Source: Candidatus Bathyarchaeota archaeon | GTDB lineage: Archaea > Thermoproteota > Bathyarchaeia > Bathyarchaeales > Bathycorpusculaceae | Direction of reading: 5' to 3' | DNA length: 64,000 bases | NCBI GenBank assembly: GCA_963717465.1 | Contig: OY970340.1 | Coordinates: 320,001 to 384,000, forward strand | Shown here: positions 17,635 to 52,866 of the stretch, piece after piece | How the letters are laid out: every line of letters begins with the position of its first letter | Position numbering within the stretch: the stretch's first letter is position 1 | Made by a program: the position numbers and the translations under genes | Notes under the pieces: model-generated | What the model saw: the letters and a program-made list of their open reading frames with translations, nothing else | What the model was told of the DNA's origin: nothing | Databases searched by the model: none

Positions 17635-19046
17635 CTACAGCCAAGAACAGTGGAGACATTGATGAAAATAAGGGAAAACTGGAAAGCCGCTTAATCGTTT
17701 GAAACAACAATTTTTCCGCTCGGCAAACACACGACAACGTGCCAGCCTTGAGGTAGCAAAGTTTCCAGTTCCTGTTCGGTTACTAGCCTTTGGCAGTTTT
17801 TGCCATCGGCGCATCCCGCCATTACGCGATATCTTTGTGCTTCGCTCTCTTTTGATTTGCTCAATTTCTCTGTTGATTGAATCTTTAGAAATCATTACGC
17901 ATTCTTGAAACAAATCAATGCCTTCCCTGTAAGCAATCCGTTGTATTGCCTCAGCCTCCAAAGTAATGTTAGGAATGGCTATTGCAGGCTCTTTACCAAC
18001 CCATTCAGCTTCAAGCTGTCCGAGTATGTCCTCAGAAAAGTGTCCTGATTGTCGCAGGTTGTCGATTGCTACCTTTATTCTAATATCATCTTCGCTCGAT
18101 ACAGCCTTAGTTGTTGTGAATTGTAACAGCGGAACAGCTTCTTTGTATTTTTCTCGAAGCTTCTCTATTTCAGGCTGTGAGTATGGGCTTTCCTCTTCTC
18201 TAACTTTGCGACCTCTAATTTTCTTGCCCAATTCGGGTGAATGCCAACCTCTTCCAGTGCAGTTTCAACCATTCGCCTGCCATCATGCCATGTAAAGTGC
18301 ACATTAGCATTTTTTTGATAGTTCCACAATCAAATCACCCATATGATTGTAATTTAGCGGTTAGTAAGGCTTACATATGTTTCTCCAAACTTTATTCTCT
18401 AAGCCTAACCGTCTGCCCATCTTCTTCTCATCCATTCCTTGTAATTCAAGAAGTCACGTTTTACCTCAGGTTCAAGAAGGCTATCTGTCGCACACCTTTG
18501 TATCGTCCTACACCGTTACCTTTCAAAATCTCAGACAGACAACTAATACAAGGCAAATCCTTTATTTCCCAATTATCTTCAAAATACTTGAATTTTAGCT
18601 CAATCATCGTTTCCTTGGCTAAAGCCTACTGTTGACAAAGCTGATTAGCGATTTATCTCTTAGATTTTGAGCATAATCCCACAGTCTCGTAAACCGTCTT
18701 TTGAGGGCTTTCGATGTTCCCTCTGCTGGATTAATGTGATTGCGCCTGATAGTCTTGCTAAATCGCGGTAGCTATGCTTGTAAAAGCTCTTGACGGCTGT
18801 AACCATGTTTACTTTGATAGGATTGGTAAATTGAGGAGTTTCAGCAGTAACAAAATCATCCAAAAGCTGTTCTGCCTCTTTGCTTGCTGGACTATCTTTT
18901 AAAGCAAGCAGTTCTGTCGGGTTCTTTTTAGCCCACCTGCAAAACTCCAACAGATAAAAGCAGTTGGCATTTTTTGATTGCAATTTGCCAACCCAGCGCA
19001 TAACTTGAGAGATTACGTTGCTTCTTGTTATCTTCTCGCCGCCCAA
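17635..19046 (-). pseudogene. Decayed tyrosine recombinase/integrase-like gene
   Basis: Across frames: AVKSFYKHSY, LRDKSLISFVNS, FTWHDGRRMVETALEEVG, IRGRK..SPYSQP..LREKYKEAVPLLQF; several frameshifts and one in-frame TAA; 3' end uncertain. Confidence 0.75.
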
Positions 19047-40865: not shown

Positions 40866-41273
40866 ATGGTACGTGTTGGAAATTATGAAGTTCCAGAAGG
40901 GCTCTATTACTCGAAAGATTTTGAATGGATAAAGATTGAAGCAGATAAAGTTCGGATGGGTATAACTGATTACGCTCAAAAATCGTTAAGAGAAATCGTT
41001 TTTGCCCAAATGAATCCATCCGGAACTGAAGTGAAGCAGGGAGAACCGTATGGTTCAGTGGAATCCGTTAAAGCTGTTTCAGACTTAATCTCAGCAGCAA
41101 GCGGAACTATCGAAAAAGTTAACGAGGAAGTGCAGTCTAAACCAGAACTGATAAACGAAGATCCCTACGGGAAAGGCTGGCTAATCATACTTAAACCCTC
41201 GAACCTAAACGCTGAACTTGCTAACTTAATGGATTTCAATAAAGCCGTCGAATGGCATAAAGCTCAAAAGTAA
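40866..41273 (+). CDS. gcvH: Glycine cleavage system H protein
   Basis: GITDYAQ, VESVKAVSD (lipoyl Lys), NEDPYGKGW. Confidence 0.95.
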   Translation: MVRVGNYEVPEGLYYSKDFEWIKIEADKVRMGITDYAQKSLREIVFAQMNPSGTEVKQGEPYGSVESVKAVSDLISAASGTIEKVNEEVQSKPELINEDPYGKGWLIILKPSNLNAELANLMDFNKAVEWHKAQK

Positions 41274-41436
41274 GCGCACGTCACGTCATCTCTTAAATAA
41301 AGAGACCCTCTTTTTATTGGCTTAGATAACATGCTTAAGTTAACTTTCGGACTTAAGCCATGTATTCTTGTTAATGGTTAACAAAAATGATTTTTGTTTG
41401 TTGTTTTTGTTTTGATTCTTGCTTTATTTTACATGT

Positions 41437-41877
41437 TTATGGCTGAGTGAATGGTTCAGTCATTCCAGCTAGCAATTTTCCAAACGTGTTGATGTGCGTT
41501 TCTTCGTCAGCTAAAATTTCTTCGAGCAAGCGTCTTGTGGTGTAGTCTCCTTCTTCAGCAGCTGTCTGGATTCCATGCTTGTAAAGTTCGATTGCGCCTT
41601 CCTCGTCTTCTTCATTCTGCCTTAACATTTCGATCAAGCTTCCGCCGACAAATATGGGTTCAGGTTTAGTTGTTGGTATGCCATTTAAGTAGTCGAGCCG
41701 CTCGGCAAGCCTTTCAGCATGCTTCATCTCGGCAATAGCGATTTTTCTGAAAGTGCCCTCGGTAATTGCGCCGTTTAATCCTGTTACTTGTATATGTTGC
41801 CACATGTATTGAATGGAAACTTGAAGTTCGCGTGCGATAGCCTCGTTTAAGAGGTCGAGCAGTTTTTTTGAAGCCAT
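41437..41877 (-). CDS. Ferritin-like/bacterioferritin-family protein
   Basis: ARELQVSIQY, EMKHAE, EEGAI..Y, DEETH ferroxidase-type motifs. Confidence 0.88.
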   Translation of the reverse strand: MASKKLLDLLNEAIARELQVSIQYMWQHIQVTGLNGAITEGTFRKIAIAEMKHAERLAERLDYLNGIPTTKPEPIFVGGSLIEMLRQNEEDEEGAIELYKHGIQTAAEEGDYTTRRLLEEILADEETHINTFGKLLAGMTEPFTQP

Positions 41878-42041
41878 AAAAATCCTTCTATTAAGCAAGT
41901 AGCCTACTTCATGTATTTAACATGTTTGTTTCGGAACAATTTAGCCAGTAAGAAACAGGAAGCTATTCGTTAATGTTATGCAAAAAGTATATTTGACAGG
42001 TAGCCATCAAAGTCTTAGCCAAAACAGAAGGTTACTGCTAA

Positions 42042-42203
42042 ATGCCCATACTTGATCCAGTTAAAAAAGCAATAGCGCAAAAGCACAGGTTGTACATGAA
42101 GATTTGCAGGGACTGCGGCGCACGGAACGCTGAAACCGCAATAAAATGCAGAAAATGCAAAGGAAAAAACCTGCGCTGGAAGAAACGAGAAATAGTAAAG
42201 TAA
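42042..42203 (+). CDS. rpl40e: 50S ribosomal protein L40e (not in the ORF track)
   Basis: MPILDPVKKAIAQKHRLYMKICRDCGARNAETAIKCRKCKGKNLRWKKREIVK. Confidence 0.93.
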   Translation: MPILDPVKKAIAQKHRLYMKICRDCGARNAETAIKCRKCKGKNLRWKKREIVK

Positions 42204-42512
42204 ATTTAACTTACAGGTTAAAGAATCTATATTACTTTTTTAGATTTCTTTTGGAGGGCGCTTTCTTGATGAAACTCCAAGACGATCTTGGCATAATCCG
42301 AACAAATTCTTCAAGCTGCAGGCTTGCATTCAGGCATGGTCTTAGTGCGTTTATTGCATATTTTTTAGTTTAATGCTTCTCATTAAGCTCTTGTTAATTT
42401 AGGTTGATAGGCATCTGTAATCTGAGTTAAAAACCATGCTTCAAGAGACCCAAAATTTCACTTTTTTGTTTTCTGAAAAAGAAGAAATAGTAGTTACTAT
42501 CTAACAGTTTCT

Positions 42513-43332
42513 ATGCGATTACTCTTTAAAGAAGCCATTCAAACCTGTTTTAGCCCAACAGATGACCGATTAAAGAAGCTCACCAAATGGGTTGAAAACT
42601 CAAACTCCGCAAGAGACACAAAAAACCTAAACAAAAAACTTAACCAGTATGATAAAGCGGAAGAACTCATCGCTTTCTACACTTTTGCACCATTAGTGTT
42701 AAGTCTAAACAGGGTAGGGTTAACAAACAGAATACTATCATTAGCTAATGTAAGTGCGTTTGAAGAGAGTGTGGAAGAAATAGCTCTCGAAAAACAATTC
42801 AACCCACCAAAAGAATACCTACGATGGCTCAGAAAACAATGTGACAATCACCCCATTAGATATGTTAGAGAGCAAGCAAAACTGCATAAGGATAACCAGC
42901 GATTAGAAGGAAATACACATGCTGATGCATTCATTCAAACCGACAAACTGCTCATCTTCTTCGAAATTAAGTTCACTTCAGACATTTCATGTGACACTAC
43001 CTTTGACCCATGTAGAAATCAATTGGCAAGACTTGTTGATGTCGGTTTAGAAGTTAACGAACAAAATGGCAAAGAAGTTCTTGTAATCCTATCAACTCCA
43101 CGTAAACTCTACGAGAGTAAAAGCAGATTCTATTATTACAAAATCGGAGTACGCTCACCCAGAAAAGATGAAGGAAGACATTGAGTGGAGAAGCGTTGCA
43201 ACTATTAGAGATAATGTCTTAGCTGTAAGGTGGATTGCTCTCGAAGACTTAATTGATGCACTCTACAGAGACTTTGAGCATAAGGATAAGAAAGAAGCAT
43301 TAGAATTTTTCAAAGAGAAAAACCTCTTGTAA
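42513..43332 (+). CDS. Putative PD-(D/E)xK nuclease (frameshift near 43147)
   Basis: EGNTHADAFI..FFEIKFTSD..RNQLAR; continues in another frame to TAA at 43332. Confidence 0.6.
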
Positions 43333-43365
43333 AATCTGTGAAAGAGATTAAGTCATTATTCTTTT

Positions 43366-43689
43366 TTAGTCCTCAATGTTTTTAATTAATTTTTTTAATG
43401 ACTCAAGGGTTTTCTTAACTGTTAGATTGTTAAGAAGATCCAGGTTCAATTCTATTGCCTTATTATCATTTAAAGAATCGTCTGTCATGAAGTCTATTAC
43501 TACCTCACTGAAGACCTTCCAGAGCTTTGACATTGGCATATTGTAGGTTTCATCATCTGTAAAGCCTTCTTTACGCATTCTTCCTAACATTTCATTAATT
43601 AATGCAACTTCAAGCGTTCCTTGCTTTTTTGCTTCATCTACAAATTCTTTGAAAGTCATGTCTAAAACATCTTTGACTATGTCAGACAT
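43366..43689 (-). CDS. Hypothetical protein, paralog of 12982-13305
   Basis: Same length (107 aa), strong similarity, conserved upstream DNA. Confidence 0.75.
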   Translation of the reverse strand: MSDIVKDVLDMTFKEFVDEAKKQGTLEVALINEMLGRMRKEGFTDDETYNMPMSKLWKVFSEVVIDFMTDDSLNDNKAIELNLDLLNNLTVKKTLESLKKLIKNIED

Positions 43690-43871
43690 ATCATATTTTT
43701 TGTTTGGTTGCTATTTTAACTACTATTGCATACAAAAATAGATGCACATTTAACCTAACAACGCTTTTCCTATGTGTAGGATTAGACAGTTAGTAAAGTG
43801 AGCGTTAAGTTTGTTGTTACTTAGACGAGACAACATATACCTATATACTATCTTATAATTTCATTCGCTAA

Positions 43872-44009
43872 ATGAATGGAAACATAGTTACTTGCCCAAA
43901 CTGCGGTAATACGCTTGATAAACCATGCAAAAAATTAGAAAATTCTGTCTTTGCAATTGCAGCTTACCATTGCCCAAAATGTGATACTACTTTTAAAGTG
44001 GTTCGCTAA
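43872..44009 (+). CDS. 45-aa zinc-ribbon microprotein (not in the ORF track)
   Basis: MNGNIVTCPNCGNTLDKPCKKLENSVFAIAAYHCPKCDTTFKVVR. Confidence 0.65.
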   Translation: MNGNIVTCPNCGNTLDKPCKKLENSVFAIAAYHCPKCDTTFKVVR

Positions 44010-44218
44010 AAATCTTCTTTTTTTCAGGTTTTCTGGATGATGATATTCTTATTGCTTTTCTCTCTAAGGTTTTATGTTTATATCTCTTAATTGAAAATAA
44101 AAGCTTTTTGAAATCTGTGAAATAATAATAATTTATTCAATCTTCCACCACATGCGGCATTCAACTGGTCAATCCTTCCAAGTCCTTTGTCTTTTATTTA
44201 TAGTGAAAGAGGGGTTCT

Positions 44219-44638
44219 TTAATCTCGCTTTGCCAATCTTTTCTTCATGCATTCTTCACAAAAATTGTTCTTGAACCTTCTTAAACGTCTGGGCTGAAAT
44301 GATTTTCCGCAGCCATTACAGTTTATTTGATTAACCTGTTTGGGTTCAAGTAGTCTTAATCTTCGCTCTATCTCAACTCTAACTTCAGGATCATCAACTG
44401 TTTTCAAAGCATCAGTTAACAAAATTCTTGCCTGTTCAACACTGTTTTCACCAAAAACCTTTACAAAGCCATTCTTGCTATTCCCAAGCTGAATGGGCAA
44501 CATGCAAACAAAATTTGAAGGATAACTCTTAGACTTGCGCATATCAATTACGGCAAAGCGAAAGCGATGCCTCTTGGAATAGTCCGAAATGTCTTCTCGC
44601 TTAATGATACGCAATTTAAAGTCCATGTCAATCAACAC
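44219..44638 (-). CDS. Hypothetical protein with C-terminal zinc finger
   Basis: CNGCGKSF..FCEEC. Confidence 0.7.
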   Translation of the reverse strand: MLIDMDFKLRIIKREDISDYSKRHRFRFAVIDMRKSKSYPSNFVCMLPIQLGNSKNGFVKVFGENSVEQARILLTDALKTVDDPEVRVEIERRLRLLEPKQVNQINCNGCGKSFQPRRLRRFKNNFCEECMKKRLAKRD

Positions 44639-44691
44639 TTAGAACTAAGAGATTAAGAATACAACCTAATAATTGTAACCTATGGATTTTT

Positions 44692-44807
44692 CAAAAATAT
44701 ATTGTCTGGTTTGAAACTTGTTACCCGAATCTTCCACTACACACTGGACATTCAGTTAGAAGCTTGTTCCGATATACATGATTACTTCAAGCATCACAAG
44801 GTCGAAG
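44692..44807 (-). pseudogene. Internally deleted copy of the RING-like microprotein gene plus linker (repeat copy)
   Basis: Reads LRPCDA*..YRNKLLTECPVCSGRFG*; DNA matches 17430-17480. Confidence 0.7.
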
Positions 44808-44825
44808 GTAGGCCCTGATTACATA

Positions 44826-47453
44826 TTATTGACTATTTGAGGGAAGATTGATTGTGAATTTTGTTCCTTTGCCAACTTCACTTTCAAAAAATATTGTTCC
44901 GCCTTGAGCTTCTATAACCCGTTTGCAGACTGATAAACCGAAGCCTTGACCTCTTGATTTAGTTGTAAACAATGGAGTAAAGATTTTAGGTTTGACCTCT
45001 TCAGCAATTCCTACACCAGTATCCTCAACCTTAATCTCCATTTGACCTTTACCATCAACAAGTGCTTCTATCATTAATTCTCCACCGTTTGGCATGGCTT
45101 GAACTGAATTCGTGACAAGATTGATTAGCACTCTTCTTAGCAGTTGAGGGTCTACATCAACTGTTAGCTTCTCTCTAAGTTTAATTGTTGCTTGAATGTT
45201 CTCAGGAATGTTCAATTGGTCTAAAGTTGATGCTAAGAGTTCATTTAAATTAATAATTTGCTTGATTGTTTCCACTGGTTTAACGAAAGTTTGCAAGTCA
45301 CTCACTATTTTATCCATATAGTTGATTTGTGCTTCAATATCCTCAATGCTCTCAAGCATCATAGTTCTTGATTGTCCTTCTGGAACACTATCTAATTCTG
45401 ATTTTGCAAGATACAGTTCCCCAATGATGGCTTGCAACGGATTCCGCAAATCATGCCCAACCATGCCAGCCGTTTCACCAATGGCTGATAGTCTTTCTTT
45501 TTCCTGCAATTGCTTTTCTAAGTTCTTACGTTCAGTAACATCTTCAGCGATTAAACCCATTTGGTTTGGGTTCGGTCTCCATGCAAGAACTTCAAAATAA
45601 CGGTTTAACACTTCACTTTTCATTAAAGAGCGAATAGGCTTACCAGTTTTTTCAACTTGATTGAACATTTCCAGCCAATAATCAACCCTAAATTTTGTTA
45701 AGTCTCTTAGATTTATGTCTTTAAAGACATCCCTCGTTCCTTTGCCAATAATATCCTCTTTTCTTTTATTCAGAAGCTTTAAAAACGCAACGTTGGCATC
45801 AGTAATAACATAATCAATAATTTTTCCTGCTTTATCAAAAACTAAATCGGCGATAAAGAACATTTCACTCATAGAATCAAAAAGCTGATGATAGCGTTTT
45901 TCACTTTCCTGCAAAGCAAGTCGAGCCTGCTTAAGCTCAGTCATGTCAACGCTTATCCCTCTTGCTCCAACAATCTTATCTTGCTTTATGATTGGTACAC
46001 TAATAAGTAATACAGGGAATTTTGAACCGTTCTTTCTAACAAACATATATTCAATACTTTGTCTTTTACCGTCTGAAAACATTTTTATCATGTTAGTTTT
46101 TGAACGTTTAGCATCCTCTTCAGCGACCAAACGGTTAGCATTAAAACTGCTTCCAAAGTCCTGTTTAGAATAACCCGTTTGCTCAATTGACTTCGAATTT
46201 GCAAAATTTATGATCCCTTTATTGTCAATTTCAAAAACCATTTCAGGTAACTTATCAACCATCTGTTGATATTTGCTCTCGCTTTCCTTCAGCTCCGCCT
46301 CAGCTTTTTTACGTTCGGATATATCTTTAAGCAAAACGCCGACTTGACCCCTAACGAATGGAAACATGTGAACATCAAACCACCTGCTTACTTCCTTGTT
46401 AAACCTTTCATAACGTGCCCATTCGCCGGTCTTGGCAACTTTGCCAATTAATGAAAACCATATAGGCTCAATGTTCTCTGGAACTTCGCTTGCCCTTTTG
46501 CCTTCAACATCTTCGATGCCCCCGCCTGTTTGACGCTCAAACGCAGGATTAACCTTCAAAAACCTAAAATCACATAGTTCTCCTGCTTGATTGTACAGTG
46601 GCTCAAGCAAAATGAAACCATCATCGCTATTATCAAACAATGTCCTGTATAGCTGTTCACTGTCTCTGAGTGAATTTTCAGCTTTTTTGAGTTCGGTTAC
46701 ATCTCTGAAGAGTATGCCGATTTTTCCTTCCTGGTATTTGAAAGTATAACCATCATACCATCGGCTGGTAACTTGGTTATAGTTCTCAAAATGCTCGGAT
46801 ATACCTGTTTTGTTTGCCTTATCGATAGAAGAAAACCAGTGGGACTCTATCTTAGGAAATATGCCTTTTACACGCTTGCCAACGAGAACGGATGATTTAA
46901 CTCCAGTCTGCTTCTCATAAGCTTCATTTACCCTAAGATACACCAAATCAACAAGCTTACTTTCCTTATTGTACAATAGCTCAAACAGTACAAAGGCATC
47001 TTGAGTATTATCAATAAGTTTATGGTAGAGTTCTTGGTTTTCTCTTATTGCATCTTCTGCTTTCTTGCGTTCAGTGATGTCTTGAACAGTTACTATTAGC
47101 CTAACTGGATGATTATGTTCAAAGAAGGTCTGTCCAGTGGCAGTTATCCATCTCATGTTGCCGTCTTTCTGGTTAATAACTCGATATTCTGCACAGTATT
47201 CTCCATTTTCATTTGGGTTAAGAGCCTTGTCAATTTCTGCTTGAGTATTTGCACGGTCATCTGGATGTATCAATGACATAAAAGTATCATGCGTAAATTT
47301 TCCTTTCGGACCAACTCCCAAAATTTCCCTAACGCGCTTATCCAATTGAATTGTTCCAGAAGTCAAATCATAATCATAAATTCCCAATTTATTAGCCTTT
47401 ATTGCTAATGAAAATCGTGTTTTCGTTTCAAACAAATTTTCTTTTTCAAGCAA
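44826..47453 (-). CDS. Multi-PAS sensor histidine kinase
   Basis: Several PAS/PAC units, VGHDLRNPL, HATPase boxes; close paralog of 8026-11001. Confidence 0.93.
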   Translation of the reverse strand: MLEKENLFETKTRFSLAIKANKLGIYDYDLTSGTIQLDKRVREILGVGPKGKFTHDTFMSLIHPDDRANTQAEIDKALNPNENGEYCAEYRVINQKDGNMRWITATGQTFFEHNHPVRLIVTVQDITERKKAEDAIRENQELYHKLIDNTQDAFVLFELLYNKESKLVDLVYLRVNEAYEKQTGVKSSVLVGKRVKGIFPKIESHWFSSIDKANKTGISEHFENYNQVTSRWYDGYTFKYQEGKIGILFRDVTELKKAENSLRDSEQLYRTLFDNSDDGFILLEPLYNQAGELCDFRFLKVNPAFERQTGGGIEDVEGKRASEVPENIEPIWFSLIGKVAKTGEWARYERFNKEVSRWFDVHMFPFVRGQVGVLLKDISERKKAEAELKESESKYQQMVDKLPEMVFEIDNKGIINFANSKSIEQTGYSKQDFGSSFNANRLVAEEDAKRSKTNMIKMFSDGKRQSIEYMFVRKNGSKFPVLLISVPIIKQDKIVGARGISVDMTELKQARLALQESEKRYHQLFDSMSEMFFIADLVFDKAGKIIDYVITDANVAFLKLLNKRKEDIIGKGTRDVFKDINLRDLTKFRVDYWLEMFNQVEKTGKPIRSLMKSEVLNRYFEVLAWRPNPNQMGLIAEDVTERKNLEKQLQEKERLSAIGETAGMVGHDLRNPLQAIIGELYLAKSELDSVPEGQSRTMMLESIEDIEAQINYMDKIVSDLQTFVKPVETIKQIINLNELLASTLDQLNIPENIQATIKLREKLTVDVDPQLLRRVLINLVTNSVQAMPNGGELMIEALVDGKGQMEIKVEDTGVGIAEEVKPKIFTPLFTTKSRGQGFGLSVCKRVIEAQGGTIFFESEVGKGTKFTINLPSNSQ

Positions 47454-47718
47454 TACCTATAAAACTCCTCAAAAATCGACTATATTATAAATATAATATT
47501 AACAGTTTAAATCATATATAAATTGGCATTTCCAGAAAAGAAACGAGAAATAGTAAAGTAGTGCCTGCGCTTATTGGTTGAGATTTTAGGCAAGGCTTTG
47601 AGCGTCAGGCTTTAGTGGTCAAAGTGCATTGCTCATAGTGATGTTTCAGGGGGGATTGGGTAGGTCTTTGGGTAAAACTTATATTCTGCCCAATTCATTG
47701 GGTAACATGTGCTGAGTT

Positions 47719-47961
47719 ATGGCTGAAACTACTTTTTACAAGAATAAGGTGTATCTTCCACGTGAAGTTCAAGAGAAACTGGGACTGGCTGAGGGTGACG
47801 TTTTGCGTATTGAAGTCGTTGAGAAAGGTGTAGCTAAATTAGAAGTTGCACGCAGTTGTGATGCATCAGCAAGAATCCTCAAAAGACTCAAAAATCCTCC
47901 AGACCTGGGAAGAGTGAAGGGTAAACTTGGGCGAGAGGAAATCTACGAAGATATTACTTGA
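47719..47961 (+). CDS. AbrB-type antitoxin
   Basis: VYLPREVQEKLGLAEGDVL; overlaps the PIN gene. Confidence 0.8.
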   Translation: MAETTFYKNKVYLPREVQEKLGLAEGDVLRIEVVEKGVAKLEVARSCDASARILKRLKNPPDLGRVKGKLGREEIYEDIT

Positions 47962-48382
47962 CACCAATATCCTTGTCCATGCTCATAATAAGTCATCTCC
48001 TCATCAGAAAAGCGCCAGCGCTGTAATTGAGGATGCAATGACTGGCAAATTCGATGCATGCTTGACAGCTCAAGTGATATACGAGTTCTTTGCAGTCATA
48101 ACGAACCCAAAAAGGGTAGAGTCACCCATGAAATTAGATGAAGCAGTCAACGTTTGTAAGGATTTTTGGGAATGTTTCGAAATCGAAAAGATTAATCCAA
48201 CTCATAACACAGTCATGGACGTAATGAAGCTGGCCAAAGAAATGAAAGTTTCCAAAGGCAAGATTTTCGATTGCGTCTTGGCTGTCACAGCCAAAGATAA
48301 TGATGTGCAATGCATTTACACTGAAAATACCGATGACTTCAAAAAATACCTGTTTCTGAACGCTTCCAACCCTCTTAAATGA
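47927..48382 (+). CDS. VapC/PIN toxin
   Basis: LLDTNILV, QVIYEF, IFDCVL, YTENTDDF. Confidence 0.88.
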   Translation: MGERKSTKILLDTNILVHAHNKSSPHQKSASAVIEDAMTGKFDACLTAQVIYEFFAVITNPKRVESPMKLDEAVNVCKDFWECFEIEKINPTHNTVMDVMKLAKEMKVSKGKIFDCVLAVTAKDNDVQCIYTENTDDFKKYLFLNASNPLK

Positions 48383-48428
48383 CCACAGACATTATTGTAA
48401 CCACCAGTGATTTGAACGATGCAAGTCG

Positions 48429-48640
48429 ATGTCTAAGTTACCGTCTGTGGATTATGATAGGGTTATCAAAGTCCTTACACAATAGGTTATGTTGTTAACA
48501 GCCAGAAAGGAAGCCACATAGTTATGCGGCTTGTTGATAACCAGAGATATATTTCGTTGTTCGGCTGCAGAAAAAATAAGAGGATGGCAGTTATTCCTGC
48601 ACATAAACCTCTTGGAAAAGGGATGCTGAATTATCGACTT
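48429..48640 (+). pseudogene. HicA-family toxin remnant
   Basis: MSKLPSVDYDRVIKVL / GYVVNSQKGSHIVM..VIPAHKPLGKGML across one frameshift; no hicB seen. Confidence 0.7.
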
Positions 48641-48871
48641 TTTCTTTTAAGCAATTGTACCGACGCGACCCAAAAATTTTGGCCAATCAGAACTACCAAG
48701 ATTGGGACAAAAAACGGAGAAAGCAATCCTGCCATTATTAAAGCAAACCCGCCCTCATATAAACGGCCCATTCAGCATTCGCGTGCATGAACGGACAAAA
48801 CAGGACGAAATTGGCTAAGTATAAAAGGCTCTCAAGCGCATTAAAACAAAACGGGCAGTTGCGGTGAACTG

Positions 48872-49801
48872 ATGGTTTCTAAACTACCTTTAAAGAAAAC
48901 CATTTTTGTCCTAGCGGTCATCATCGTTATTGCTCTTAACCTGTACACTTTAATAGCTGCATACCCTGAAAGCACGCAGATAAGTGCAGGCATTAACCTT
49001 TCAGGTTCAGGCTCCAATTTAGCCAAGGATTTCTCAGCATATTACATAGCAGCGTGGAGGCTCTGGCATGACCCCAGCCACATTTACACTATCGGAGGCT
49101 TAGCTGATGGCGAGCCGATGATTTTTCCGCAACCGGAAACTTACAAGTACCTGCCGTCCTTTTTGCTTATAGTTTCACCTTTCCTTTCGCTGAGTTACCA
49201 GCAGGCACTTTTAGCTTTTGATATTGTTCAGTTCCTGCTTTTGCCCATCATGGCTTACATGCTCTATAAGATGCTGGGCAACAAGCCGCTGGCAGTCACT
49301 TTCATCATCATCCTTATTGCATTACTCTTGCCTTATCCAGCTCCAAACGGGGGACTTTCTTTGAGCTATTACTGGCAATGGGCTGAAGGGCAAGCCAAAG
49401 TCTTCGTGACTTTTCTGCTTTTGCTCAGCTTCTACCTTGGTTTTCGGGGTAAACCGGTTTTATCTGGAATTGTTTTTGCGTTTGGGTTTTTCGACCCTAG
49501 GTTCGGGTTGCTGGCGATACCACTCTTTGTCACGTATAACTGCAAAAAACTCAAAGTAGCCACTGTAAGCGCAATCGGTATGATGGTTGTGTCAAATGCG
49601 ATGCTGCTTTACCCAAGCATGGGCTTAGGATTCATAAGCATGGCTTTCAATTCAACGACAACACCGCTATACTACTACTCATTCATACCTCTCTTTACGC
49701 TTATAGCACTCACCGTGGTGAACGCCAAAGAAGTAGTCGCTGCCTTCTTTAGTTTAATAAGGAAAAACAACAAAACATTAGAAGTAGGCCAACAAGGATG
49801 A
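48872..49801 (+). CDS. GT87/DUF2029-like membrane glycosyltransferase
   Basis: KDFSAYY, YKYLPSF, EGQ, multiple TM helices. Confidence 0.75.
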   Translation: MVSKLPLKKTIFVLAVIIVIALNLYTLIAAYPESTQISAGINLSGSGSNLAKDFSAYYIAAWRLWHDPSHIYTIGGLADGEPMIFPQPETYKYLPSFLLIVSPFLSLSYQQALLAFDIVQFLLLPIMAYMLYKMLGNKPLAVTFIIILIALLLPYPAPNGGLSLSYYWQWAEGQAKVFVTFLLLLSFYLGFRGKPVLSGIVFAFGFFDPRFGLLAIPLFVTYNCKKLKVATVSAIGMMVVSNAMLLYPSMGLGFISMAFNSTTTPLYYYSFIPLFTLIALTVVNAKEVVAAFFSLIRKNNKTLEVGQQG

Positions 49802-50089
49802 GCAGATTGTAAGATTTCAAAAAGCTTAGGCAATCAACTAAGCTAGAAATCGTGTCTTAGTATAGAGCTCAACTATAAGTTGTATTAGCATGCGCTTTAA
49901 CCCGTAGGTTAAAAAAAAACAATGCTATTTTTATCTTCCAGACCAATTTGAAACTCAAGTTAATCATGGCTCTTCCTTGAATTGGATATTTTCCTTCCAT
50001 ACAATATGCTAACGGATTGTTATTACTAATCAGTATTATTAATTCATAAATACTTTAAGAATTTAAAATCCATTTTTTCTTGGTAAACA

Positions 50090-50656
50090 ATGATAAAAGA
50101 GAATAACGAAAACAAGACAACCTATGAAGACTTACCATACATCCCTATGGATACTGCTGTAAAACCTGCAATGTCTAGCTTTAAGAAATTAGATGTTGGC
50201 TGCGGAAACATTGGGCAAGGTGACGTTAACTGTGACTTATACATAAAAGATGCTGGGCATAGAGGAAATAAACTACAAGAAGAACAAATAAACCCTAAAC
50301 TAATATTAAATTTTGTCAACTGCGACGCATTACATTTGCCTTTTAAAAACAATGTTTTCGAAGAAGTTTATAGCAGTCACTTGATTGAGCATGTTTCTAA
50401 TCCATCCTTACTAATTAAGGAAATGCTACGGGTAACGACACACTCTGTAATAATTAAGTGCCCTCATCGTTTTGGTGAGCCCTTTAGAGCTAGATATAGT
50501 AAATATCATAAATGGCATTTCACAAGGAAGGATTTTGCTCATTTATCAAATGTTAGCGGTTATATTTCAGGTTGGGCTTACCTGCCCCATGATTATTTTC
50601 CACTTTTCAGGCTTCCATCAGAAATAACCATTCAAATAATAAAAGAGAGAGTATAG
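50090..50656 (+). CDS. Class I SAM-dependent methyltransferase
   Basis: LDVGCG, DALHLPF, SHLIEHV. Confidence 0.85.
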   Translation: MIKENNENKTTYEDLPYIPMDTAVKPAMSSFKKLDVGCGNIGQGDVNCDLYIKDAGHRGNKLQEEQINPKLILNFVNCDALHLPFKNNVFEEVYSSHLIEHVSNPSLLIKEMLRVTTHSVIIKCPHRFGEPFRARYSKYHKWHFTRKDFAHLSNVSGYISGWAYLPHDYFPLFRLPSEITIQIIKERV

Positions 50657-50932
50657 TCATTTACAAAAAAGACTAAACTTTTTATGTCTTTATGTTAGGT
50701 AACTTAATTTTACAGTCAAAATCGAATAAATTTTTTAATTCTATCTGACGAGAGTTAACAGCAAAAAGAAACTGACGATAACAACAGAACCATTGCAAGC
50801 TTTACTCATGCGATTAGGGTGAAATCAAGATAAAATCTAATGTCAAGTGTGAAAAATAATTCCGCCCTCTATGTGGAGCAGTACACCAGGATAGAATAGG
50901 TGATAACGTGTTTATAAAATCCTAGTCTACCA

Positions 50933-51232
50933 TTGAATCATTCATTTAAGAGCATAGTCATAGGGAATGACACGTTAATTGCTCAACACGTTTTTATTAT
51001 TGACAGCTACCACAGAACAGGAAGGAATGAATTAATAAGAACCCAATGTGGAACTAAAGGAGCAGTAAAGATCGGCAATGATGTTTGGATTGGTGAGGGG
51101 GCAAAGATTTTAAAGGGGGTTACGGTAGGTGATGGCGCTATAATCGGCGCTGGCAGCGTAGTAACAAAGGATGTGCCGCCATATTGCATCGCAGTTGGGG
51201 TTCCAGCTAAGGTCATTAAAGAAAGAAAATAG
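50933..51232 (+). pseudogene. Left-handed beta-helix O-acetyltransferase, 5' part degraded
   Basis: [37 protein letters not shown]; stops upstream. Confidence 0.75.
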
Positions 51233-51317
51233 AAAAGTTGAGAACATATATTTTTAATTTTAGGTAAGGTAATCTGCTTTTTGGTTTTTGCTTTTTCTCA
51301 GTTTTAGCCGTTAACAG

Positions 51318-51749
51318 TTATGGGTTATTTTGGTCGTCTTTGAATCCTAAGAGATCTTTAAGAGATTTTAATTGATCTTTTAACTCGTTTACTTCAAGTT
51401 CAAGGTCATTTGCTTTATCTTCAGCGTCTTCAAGTTCTTGGAATTCTAAAATCATGCCTGAACGTTCAGATTCTATTATTTTCAGGTTCTCTCTTAGTTT
51501 GTTTAAGTTGCTGTTTAAGCCTGACTTTATTTCGGTTAATTTTTCAATTAAGCTTAGGTAATCTGGTGAATCTGCAGGTTTTGCTTGGGAATCGACTTTT
51601 GCTCTGAATTTGAACTGGCATTTTGGGCATTGAAAAATTCCTATTTGGATTTCAGAGGTGCTTCTTTTCAGTCCCTTCTTTGAGGATGCCATAGTCCAGG
51701 ATTTTATGACTGTTGATTCTGTTCCGCATTCAGGACAATTAACCATCAA
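51318..51749 (-). CDS. Cren7-like zinc-ribbon domain fused to a coiled coil
   Basis: CPECG..KSWTM..IGIFQCPKC..KFR followed by heptad-rich acidic helices. Confidence 0.6.
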   Translation of the reverse strand: MMVNCPECGTESTVIKSWTMASSKKGLKRSTSEIQIGIFQCPKCQFKFRAKVDSQAKPADSPDYLSLIEKLTEIKSGLNSNLNKLRENLKIIESERSGMILEFQELEDAEDKANDLELEVNELKDQLKSLKDLLGFKDDQNNP

Positions 51750-51867
51750 GTGAGCCTCACGCGATCAATCATTTTTCTTATTATTCTGTTGACGTGGCTA
51801 TAACATTTTGCATTGCAAAAGAAAGATTTTGGCGAAAAATAATAAAAAAAGAAAAAAGATATGTTAG

Positions 51868-52866
51868 TTAAAGGCTGATTTGGAACATTAATCTTTCAGC
51901 TAGTTCCTTGTATCGGTTTCTGATTGTGACTTCGGTTACTTGTGCGATTTCTGCGATTTCTCTTTGAGTTTTTCTTTCTCCTGTTAAGACTGATGCTACG
52001 TAGCTTGCGGCTGCGGCGATGCCTGTTGGACCTCTGCCTGAGGTGAGTTTGAGTTCTTTTGCTGCGGCTAGGATTTTGTGGGCGATCTCTTCTACTTTTC
52101 CCTGCATGGTTAATTGGTTGGAGAATTTTGTTACGTACTGGCTGGGTCTAAGCGGCGGGATTGAATAGTTGAGTTCTTTTATTAGGAAACGGTAACTGCG
52201 GCCTACTTCTTTCTTGTTTATTGTTGATGATTGCGCGATTTCGTCTAGTGTTCTGGGTAGTCCGCATTGTCTGCAGGCTAGGTAGATTGCTGCTGATGTA
52301 ACGCCTTGGATGGATCTGCCGCGGATTAAGCGTTCTTTTACGGCTTTTCGGTAGATTACTGAGGCGGTTTCAAGGATGTTTTTTGGCAGGTTGAGGTTGT
52401 TGGATATCTTGGTGATTTCTGATAGGGCAAAGGCTAGGTTGCGTTCTGTTGCGTCGGATACGCGTATGCGTCTTTGCCATTTTCTTAAGCGGTAGACTTG
52501 GGCTTTTTGTCCCGGCGAGAGGCTTTTGCCGTAGATGTCTCGGTCGTGCCAGTCGATGGTTGTGGATAAGCCTTTATCGTGAATTGTATAAGTTAGGGGT
52601 GCGCCGACTCGGGTTCTTTTTGATCGCTGCTCATCGTCGAATGCTCTCCATTCGGGTCCTCTGTCAGCTATTTTGGCTTGGATGACGTAGCCGCAGTCCA
52701 TGCAGACTAATTCAGCGGCTTCGTAGTCGCGCATTAGTCGGGTGCTGCCGCATTCGGGGCATGATTGGACTTTAAAAGTTTCTGTTTTTTGGGGTGCTTG
52801 GTCTGCTTCCTCATGCAGCTTGCTTTCAGGTACCTTGTTATCTTGTAACTTGCTTTCTCTACTCAT
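51868..52866 (-). CDS. tfb: Transcription initiation factor IIB
   Basis: CPECG zinc ribbon, GPEWRAF, two cyclin repeats, [12 protein letters not shown]. Confidence 0.98.

Follow-up and report, generated by a model that had tools for sequence, protein, structure and literature searches.

The last codons of rpl40e, the gene of ribosomal protein L40e, occur twice within 5.4 kb in the genome of a Candidatus Bathyarchaeota archaeon (assembly GCA_963717465.1, contig OY970340.1), which raises the question whether the DNA between the two copies is an integrated element and whether the copies are its attachment sites, attL and attR. The stretch analysed, referred to below as the window, comprises 64,000 nucleotides (positions 320,001 to 384,000 of the contig). 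The window's own genome, G000, is a single contig of 3,053,889 bp that holds the whole window, and positions are those of the window unless assigned to a genome or another contig. The repeat is exact, direct and 23 bp long, with copy 1 at 42180-42202 and copy 2 at 47538-47560, 5358 bp apart, as had been reported in the initial annotation of this locus, and a search of the whole genome with up to three mismatches allowed found these two sites only. The chance expectation for such a 23-mer is 1.4e-8 per window, and among the 284 exact direct repeats of at least 20 bp that lie 1-150 kb apart in G000, unrelated flanks were found in 17, this pair among them. Copy 1 is completed by TAA and copy 2 by TAG, so the protein is indeed restored either way. 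The site consists of the following features.

42042 to 42203, plus strand: rpl40e, the target gene, encoding L40e of 53 aa and ending in TAA (PF01020 and NF003161 over cut-off).
42180 to 42202, plus strand: repeat copy 1, comprising 15 bp of the gene, a 6-bp spacer (GTAAAG, the last two codons, 42195-42200, as suggested by a table of junctions) and TA of the stop codon.
42201 to 42242, plus strand: element arm (P'-type) beginning at the stop codon, the best match in the genome to the integrase-proximal arm of the G099 element described below.
47538 to 47561, plus strand: repeat copy 2, comprising the last seven codons of rpl40e and TAG, without an inverted arm on its left side; probably a displaced old gene end.

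The explanation that we favour, with a probability of roughly 0.55, is that the interval is a decayed, integrase-less derivative of Bathyarchaeia elements that insert at the rpl40e stop codon, and that copy 2 is the old gene end remaining after a one-off, non-canonical entry. As judged from the compared sequences, elements with inverted arms and a distal integrase sit at the stop codon of rpl40e and of one or more further protein genes, and the left junction of such an element is preserved in the window. Of the attL/attR pair that had been proposed for the two copies, the left member thus stands, owing to the arm behind the stop codon, while the right one does not: copy 2 lacks the inverted arm, and the 23-bp pair is not supported as the att core of the family, whose right end is an inverted arm followed by a 6-bp spacer and TAA.

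The left junction was recognized by the DNA directly behind copy 1. With the integrase-proximal arm of the G099 element alone as a query, 42201-42242 was the best match in the 3.05 Mb of the genome (E 5.6e-5; the next 0.057). A hidden Markov model (HMM) of four arms, none of which has rpl40e directly upstream on its contig, placed the same site first in G000 with 17.4 bits, followed by a site at 49896 with 14.0 bits, the maximum in the reversed genome being 10.8 bits. The top match of a nine-arm HMM containing no G000 sequence was also the arm at 42201. Copy 1 is therefore assigned as attL, in the order gene, spacer GTAAAG, TAA, arm. The arm stands directly behind ATA-N6-TAA at the gene end, as in the attL of the family in G099 and L181. 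The view that the DNA behind copy 1 is a native terminator and copy 1 not attL was dropped, since the motif proved an element arm. An integron attC or a dif-like palindrome was rejected as well (no excess over the reversed-genome control and no cassette spacing), and so was a shortened form of the motif, found in 17/201 family genomes, about the control rate, and mostly at unrelated genes. Likewise, the motif scan gave no sign of an integron cassette array: each locus had one additional weak arm-like copy at most, and over the genome as a whole the motif was in no excess compared with the reversed control.

The locus was compared among 120 genomes of the genus, in which 111 relatives match the rpl40e gene tail and long downstream stretches were available for 78 of these, among 331 genomes of the family, and at rpl40e in 120 metagenome loci, of which 80 had long flanks (the tails of L197 and L237 duplicate those of G076 and G073 and are not independent cases). 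Many of the genus and family genomes are incomplete. On a TFB tree of 46 rows, the branch of G000 is long and has no close relative beside it. Behind copy 1, a stretch of 40 bases is unlike the T-rich tail of most relatives and recurs behind rpl40e in G073, G076, G094, G124 and the metagenome locus L181. A strong arm is present at 4/78 genus loci, and extra genes follow it at all four; the tails of these four (G094, G073, G076 and G124) were chosen by likeness to the window and not by cargo, and their own arm-HMM scores are circular, as their tails trained the model. G094 has the arm followed by 2.2 kb of cargo, both of which are absent from its nearest sisters, G079 and G019. As G094 is nested among sisters that differ by 1-2% in TFB and lack both arm and cargo, both were gained in G094.

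Relatives bearing an integrase were found at three places. Contig C28 of genome G099 starts with the last four spacer bases, TAA and the arm, which are followed by 17.8 kb of cargo and then by a 453-aa open reading frame (ORF) with a PF00589 domain, transcribed back toward the contig start. Just upstream of this integrase, 19.2 kb on, there is an inverted arm with 17 matches in its first 21 bases, followed by TTA, the spacer GTGAAG, TAA and a T-rich tail; GTGAAG is the rpl40e allele of G099 itself and of 16/112 genus genomes. At L181, rpl40e is followed by the arm, 9.6 kb of cargo and the C-terminus of an integrase that points back, is 83% identical to that of G099 and is contained letter for letter in the 438-aa protein P0002. 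The two elements agree over 59 nt at the left end (90%), over three stretches of cargo (76-86%) and in the integrase gene (79%). The earlier claim that the 3' end of rpl40e is an integration target is supported for this genus. In contig C34 of G076, a complete element of 3.6 kb occupies the stop of an acyl-CoA ligase-type gene, the protein of which ends in ILE-stop. Its integrase is a cousin of the other two with 58-68% identity, and its junctions read ATA, CTTGAA, TAA and arm on the left and inverted arm, TTA, CTTTAA and TAA on the right, with one spacer mismatch. Inverted ends (30 nt, 83%, E 4.6e-4) are also present around a more distant integrase homolog, in G108. No clear inverted-arm pair was found at the other 10 integrase-homolog loci tested, and some homologs adjoin tRNA genes, so the site design can be claimed for three elements only. 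As an observation in its own right, an integrase 55% identical to this family starts about 60 bp behind cysS in G235 (contig C4, L385-L386), where a 17-bp match to the cysS end 3.6 kb on is not significant (E 1.7).

In the scheme that would account for these junctions, intact members carry a tyrosine integrase of about 440 aa at the far end, transcribed inward, and are bounded by imperfect inverted arms of about 40 bp. Strand exchange would take place within the 6-bp spacer, that is, the last two codons of the gene, framed by ATA (host) or TTA (element) on one side and by TAA on the other. Since the element arm supplies a new TAA, the protein would remain unchanged. In G000, attL survives, and the integrase and the inverted right arm have presumably been lost: the window holds neither the family attR (inverted arm and TTA-N6-TAA at the far end) nor the far-end integrase that is present in G099, L181 and G076. 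The piece that bears attL, already without integrase and with 15 extra gene bases, would have entered a resident rpl40e of the TAG allele once and left the last 23 bases of that gene behind. Neither regular integration nor excision nor tandem accretion can duplicate the 15 bases that precede the spacer, which calls for a non-canonical step; the piece might have entered through an aberrant circle, or by homologous recombination on its left side and an illegitimate joining event on its right. Today the island would be expected to be fixed and not to serve as a substrate of the integrase. Its decay, which the initial annotation had already suspected, is visible in a frameshift, a gene fragment and the reduction of the integrase to a remnant.

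Several observations weigh against this explanation. Weak arm-like tails occur at loci without cargo (G009, G100, G127 and L216), and the arms behind rpl40e in G073, G076, G094 and G124 have neither an integrase in the fetched stretch nor an inverted partner; arms without a right end at these four genus loci are not readily explained by an excising element. The two arms in contig C9 of G073 sit away from rpl40e, and their spacers are unmatched. In G099 itself, rpl40e lies on a separate contig, carries no insert and is followed by a different tail. Contig C28 starts inside the spacer, and the genes found beyond the right end of its element are others than DUF116 and TFB; this contig may come from another strain or represent a secondary site. 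The L181 stretch ends within the integrase gene, which places its right end out of view, and attL, attR and an intact rpl40e never occur together on one fetched stretch. The cargo of the island has one weak match in six other elements. The TAG stop postulated for the resident gene is rare among genus relatives (5/111; it is found at 23/120 metagenome loci), and the DNA behind copy 2 is unlike the rpl40e downstream region of any relative. Finally, the position of the first catalytic Arg of XerA is occupied by Asp172 in 120/120 listed homologs of the integrase.

The integrase has 381 relatives at E<=1e-40, and two family members match PF00589 over cut-off. Its predicted structural model (pLDDT 78) matches XerA (5hxy, E 1.4e-10); no arm-binding N-terminal domain is seen in it, and its C-terminus forms a coiled coil. 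The residues K203, H284, R287, H310 and Y319 are invariant in 120/120 listed homologs, and Arg201 is kept in 119/120, so that one might guess at Arg201 as a substitute for the missing catalytic Arg. IntDOT of CTnDOT likewise lacks the first catalytic Arg, which is functionally replaced by another Arg further downstream (PMC8138268). Asp172 is thus no proof of inactivity, and the matched att pairs argue for an integrase that is active.

A bolder proposal goes beyond the favoured explanation, and we put it forward tentatively. In it, this large and so far undescribed Bathyarchaeia tyrosine-integrase family would read protein-gene ends (ATA, the last two codons as exchange region, and the stop), retarget from gene to gene (rpl40e, acyl-CoA ligase), use a relocated catalytic Arg in the manner of IntDOT and tolerate mismatched spacers (CTTGAA vs. 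CTTTAA in G076; unmatched in G073). Such an enzyme would be half integrase and half Tn916-like transposase, and the island would have been moved by it in trans, as a passenger without an integrase of its own.

Further observations were made on the arms and on repeats at related loci. In contig C9 of G073, two facing arms 32.7 kb apart (L312-L314, 10014-42801) enclose restriction-modification genes and a gene of a 314-aa tyrosine recombinase. This recombinase was considered as the responsible enzyme and rejected: it has no match in G000 and a strong match in only one other of 120 genomes, and no link to rpl40e was seen. Just outside the arm pair lie a TPR-HEPN gene and a nuclease-like gene, 86% identical to cargo behind rpl40e in G094. 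An intergenic repeat of about 45 bp, resembling a miniature inverted-repeat transposable element, occurs in several copies and both orientations (L312 276-560, G073 contig C9 49811-51882, and G076 contig C34 near 12300). At the rpl40e stop of L035, L061 and L208, the unit AGTAA is present in three or four copies, probably expanded by slippage.

Between the two repeat copies, the island holds the following genes.

42261 to 42343, plus strand: 5' fragment of a disrupted methyltransferase-like gene; its paralog at genome position 3047549, from which the label was read by eye, shows 82% identity.
42513 to 43332, plus strand: nuclease-like gene (223 + 54 aa), split by a 2-bp deletion near 43146; an intact 275-aa paralog lies at genome position 2640726.
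43366 to 43689, minus strand: ORF of 107 aa, no assigned family; two paralogs elsewhere in the genome (58-63%).
43872 to 44009, plus strand: zinc-ribbon ORF of 45 aa, with zinc-ribbon matches below cut-off; two paralogs.
44219 to 44638, minus strand: ORF of 139 aa with CxxC motifs; four paralogs elsewhere (45-83%).
44826 to 47453, minus strand: multi-PAS sensor histidine kinase of 875 aa (PAS, HisKA and HATPase_c over cut-off).

All island genes have paralogs elsewhere in G000, which indicates that the cargo comes from a local accessory pool. The kinase of the initial annotation holds, the zinc-finger label corresponds to sub-cut-off matches, and the nuclease is a motif-level assignment: the protein has no match in Pfam or NCBIfam, its D-x-E-x-K motif is kept in 6/6 aligned copies, and the nearest named family among its Atlas neighbours (0.86) is a lead only. 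The frameshift in this gene was recognized as a 2-bp deletion against the intact paralog. The absence of an integrase from the interval, also noted before, was confirmed for the window, where none of the four PF00589 matches of G000 falls. An HMM of 40 family members detected a single trace of the integrase family in G000, a non-catalytic C-terminal remnant (50% identical) at 832.3-832.7 kb of the genome, 470 kb off. No capsid, packaging or replication genes were found among the window ORFs scanned, no tRNA genes in the window and no Rfam matches in 41000-52000. The arm and the integrase have no matches among viral contigs, and a search of a plasmid collection gave one weak match (28%).

Other integrase-like traces occur in G000. 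In the window, two minus-strand ORFs without a Pfam match, at 17635-19046 and adjoining the start of an rpS8e-like gene, resemble a broken integrase on visual inspection; a 20-bp repeat joins positions 18766 and 31154. At genome positions 909814-916658, an integrase-like frame, perhaps an integrase interrupted by its att site, begins inside tRNA-Val, and a 38-bp repeat lies 6.8 kb on. A 439-aa integrase at 2397194-2413976 lies beside tRNA-His, and two repeats of the 5' end of this tRNA occur at distances of 15.0 and 16.7 kb. A possible provirus remnant is seen at 222957-228774, where two diverged tandem segments are spaced 5.4 kb apart and a small integrase piece lies at 226.7 kb.

The claim that the island ends at copy 2 could not be upheld, as accessory DNA runs on to 51317. 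The features to the right of copy 2 are listed here.

47719 to 48382, plus strand: AbrB/MazE-PIN (VapBC-type) toxin-antitoxin pair, which occurs at unrelated places in many relatives.
48872 to 49801, plus strand: GT87-like membrane glycosyltransferase (PF09594 just below cut-off).
49896 to 49933, plus strand: second, partial arm copy in the same orientation, the second-best HMM match in the genome (14.0 bits, E 0.22; reversed-genome maximum 10.8).
50090 to 51232, plus strand: methyltransferase and a fragment of a hexapeptide-repeat acetyltransferase, the end of the accessory tract.
51318 to 52866, minus strand: coiled-coil gene and TFB (NF001658), the conserved backbone right of the tract according to gene order in relatives.

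A small broken gene behind the PIN gene, at 48415-48628, resembles HicA by eye, and many relatives have matches to it. In the relatives, DUF116 and then TFB follow rpl40e at 64/78 loci, with DUF116 within 1 kb at 61/78; these 61 loci have no insert before DUF116, and none of them matches the DNA behind copy 2. At 14/78 genus loci there is no DUF116 within the fetched stretch. DUF116 is also missing from the window locus, and G000 holds only paralogs of 47%. Since TFB and the coiled-coil gene start at 51318 and DUF116 is absent, the variable tract measures 9.1 kb (42204-51317), with copy 2 in its middle. The arm copy at 49896 is possibly, on suggestive grounds only, the left end of a second, older element. 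The 5' side of the locus is rearranged too, the usual upstream block that ends in sucD now lying at 454-459 kb of the genome.

These features bear on an explanation that we consider unlikely, in which the left junction is attL and copy 2 an unrelated piece of debris, derived from an rpl40e end and carried along with the VapBC pair. The real island would then be the 9.1-kb tract, built by successive insertions and deprived of its right end together with DUF116, and both the missing DUF116 and the second arm-like copy at 49896 fit this course of events. A toxin-antitoxin-like cluster outside the window (genome positions 202334-206316) contains 99 bp from the 3' end of the window PIN gene (94%) and ends in 76 bp of the rpl40e 5' end (89%), closest to G000's own gene. 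These stray pieces at 203-206 kb make debris a real alternative; the 5' piece and copy 2 are both on the plus strand, 161 kb apart, and could be halves of an older gene copy. An rpl40e tail can also be copied by tandem duplication without any element, as at L192, the only one of the 120 metagenome loci with a degenerate second tail, where the gene behind rpl40e is tandemly duplicated along with a decayed rpl40e tail (640 to 1200 positions behind the stop). Against debris, copy 2 matches the gene end without a mismatch, has the same orientation, lies at a distance of 5.3 kb from rpl40e and closes with the stop codon, whereas the other pieces have diverged, and the G+C content is 35.8% between the copies compared with 39.4% beyond copy 2 (genome 40.1%).

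It is less probable still that the two 23-bp copies are canonical attL and attR of a non-autonomous element, served in trans by another integrase and with a 5.36-kb unit that could still be excised as a circle. The sequence product would be the same as in the explanation that we favour, an exact gene-end repeat that stops at the stop codon is found in streptococcal rplL elements (repeats of 12-54 bp, PMC4701971), and a thaumarchaeal element also swaps TAG for TAA (PMC6563490). On the other hand, a second gene-tail copy, defined as one without the gene's own G in front of it, turned up in 0/119 genus genomes, 0/331 family genomes and 0 metagenome contigs, and the tail has no match among viral contigs. 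The double tail in G119, the only other one in 120 genus genomes, was discarded, as the whole gene with its flanks is assembled there on two contigs. The family that does target rpl40e uses a 6-bp spacer and inverted arms, and the four PF00589 genes of G000 each lie beside or within 1.3 kb of a tRNA gene. In copy 2, the 15 gene bases, spacer and TAG are followed by unrelated DNA; to its left there is no minus-strand arm match, and the candidate inverted arm was equalled by 1051/20000 AT-rich random windows. The empty allele that the initial annotation had predicted (TAG followed by TGCCTGCGC) was found neither in the downstream comparison of genome loci, which includes no close relative, nor at the 120 metagenome loci. 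An excised circle was likewise not found, the single read run available covering neither junction. The 8-mer CCTGCGCT is present just before copy 1 (42172-42179) and just after copy 2 (47564-47571); this may be chance or a trace of a joining step.

We give little credence to the explanation in which no site-specific step took place, the arm is a terminator variant and the gap between rpl40e and TFB is a flexible island swapped by homologous recombination between conserved flanks. The content of the gap does vary widely among relatives, several arm-bearing loci have no integrase or right arm, and weak arms occur without cargo. This explanation is contradicted by the inverted arm pair around an integrase-bearing element, by arms away from rpl40e and by a related integrase that shows the same design at another gene. 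That copy 2 or the junction is an assembly artefact is very improbable: many genes are split in G000, and contigs from one read run (share 0.08), which may be that of the source sample, match pieces inside and right of the island with zero differences and cross neither junction, whereas the assembly is a single contig and the base after the repeat differs and still forms a stop. A 23-bp repeat with unique flanks is normally no problem for an assembler.

An archaeal ribosomal protein gene can now be paired with an identified integrase and a concrete site of attachment. In the proposed design of the site, the stop codon is part of the core and the last two codons form the spacer, and the enzyme lacks the first catalytic Arg. 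The window island itself is a relic with ordinary cargo, and the value of the locus lies in the integrase family and its site. If active, the system would be a candidate for use in neutral integration in Bathyarchaeia, a group without established genetics, and would account for the recurrent defence and signalling genes behind rpl40e in the genus. The locus also warns island finders that a neat repeat at a gene end need not equal a working att core. In the consulted parts of the literature (including PMC10848311, PMC13573593 and PMC13626063), neither L40e as an integration target nor this Bathyarchaeia integrase family was found; supplementary target lists, which lay outside the search, may hold L40e.

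Among known systems, cis-mobilizable elements (CIMEs) are integrase-less elements that keep both attL and attR (PMC5704250). The island resembles them as a decayed, integrase-less element at a site reused by successive elements, and domain and integrase scans of it point to the same loss of integration and transfer genes. Unlike CIMEs, it keeps attL and lacks the family attR arm, copy 2 being instead a possible target end; in its behaviour the island corresponds to a CIME-type relic that lacks the family attR. With IntDOT, the family shares the missing first catalytic Arg; it differs in being closest in sequence to archaeal XerA-type folds, in a model without an arm-binding N-terminal domain and in the C-terminal coiled coil.

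The initial annotation was right to call tRNA genes the main archaeal integration targets, although protein genes are also reported (PMC8371274), and it overstated how unusual a protein-gene target is: in Thaumarchaeota, 14/68 integrated elements lie in 3' ends of protein genes (PMC6563490, Krupovic et al. 2019). None of the targets listed there is a ribosomal protein, and one element swaps TAG for TAA. Cryptic thaumarchaeal elements such as NitEve-E2 are like the present ones in being small archaeal elements in a protein-gene 3' end, with a short att site and an element-supplied stop (TAA for TAG). Inverted arms of about 40 bp and a spacer made of the last two codons are not described there for the NitEve-E2 group, and those elements encode an integrase, unlike the window island. 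In streptococci, ribosomal protein genes are usual targets: the tyrosine integrases of integrative and conjugative or mobilizable elements act there at rplL, rpsI and rpmG, with repeats of 12-54 bp holding the exact gene end (PMC4701971). These elements, too, insert into the 3' ends of their ribosomal target genes and leave the protein unchanged. In contrast to those bacterial elements with their conjugation modules, the elements described here are archaeal, show no transfer genes and seem to need identity in the 6-bp spacer only.

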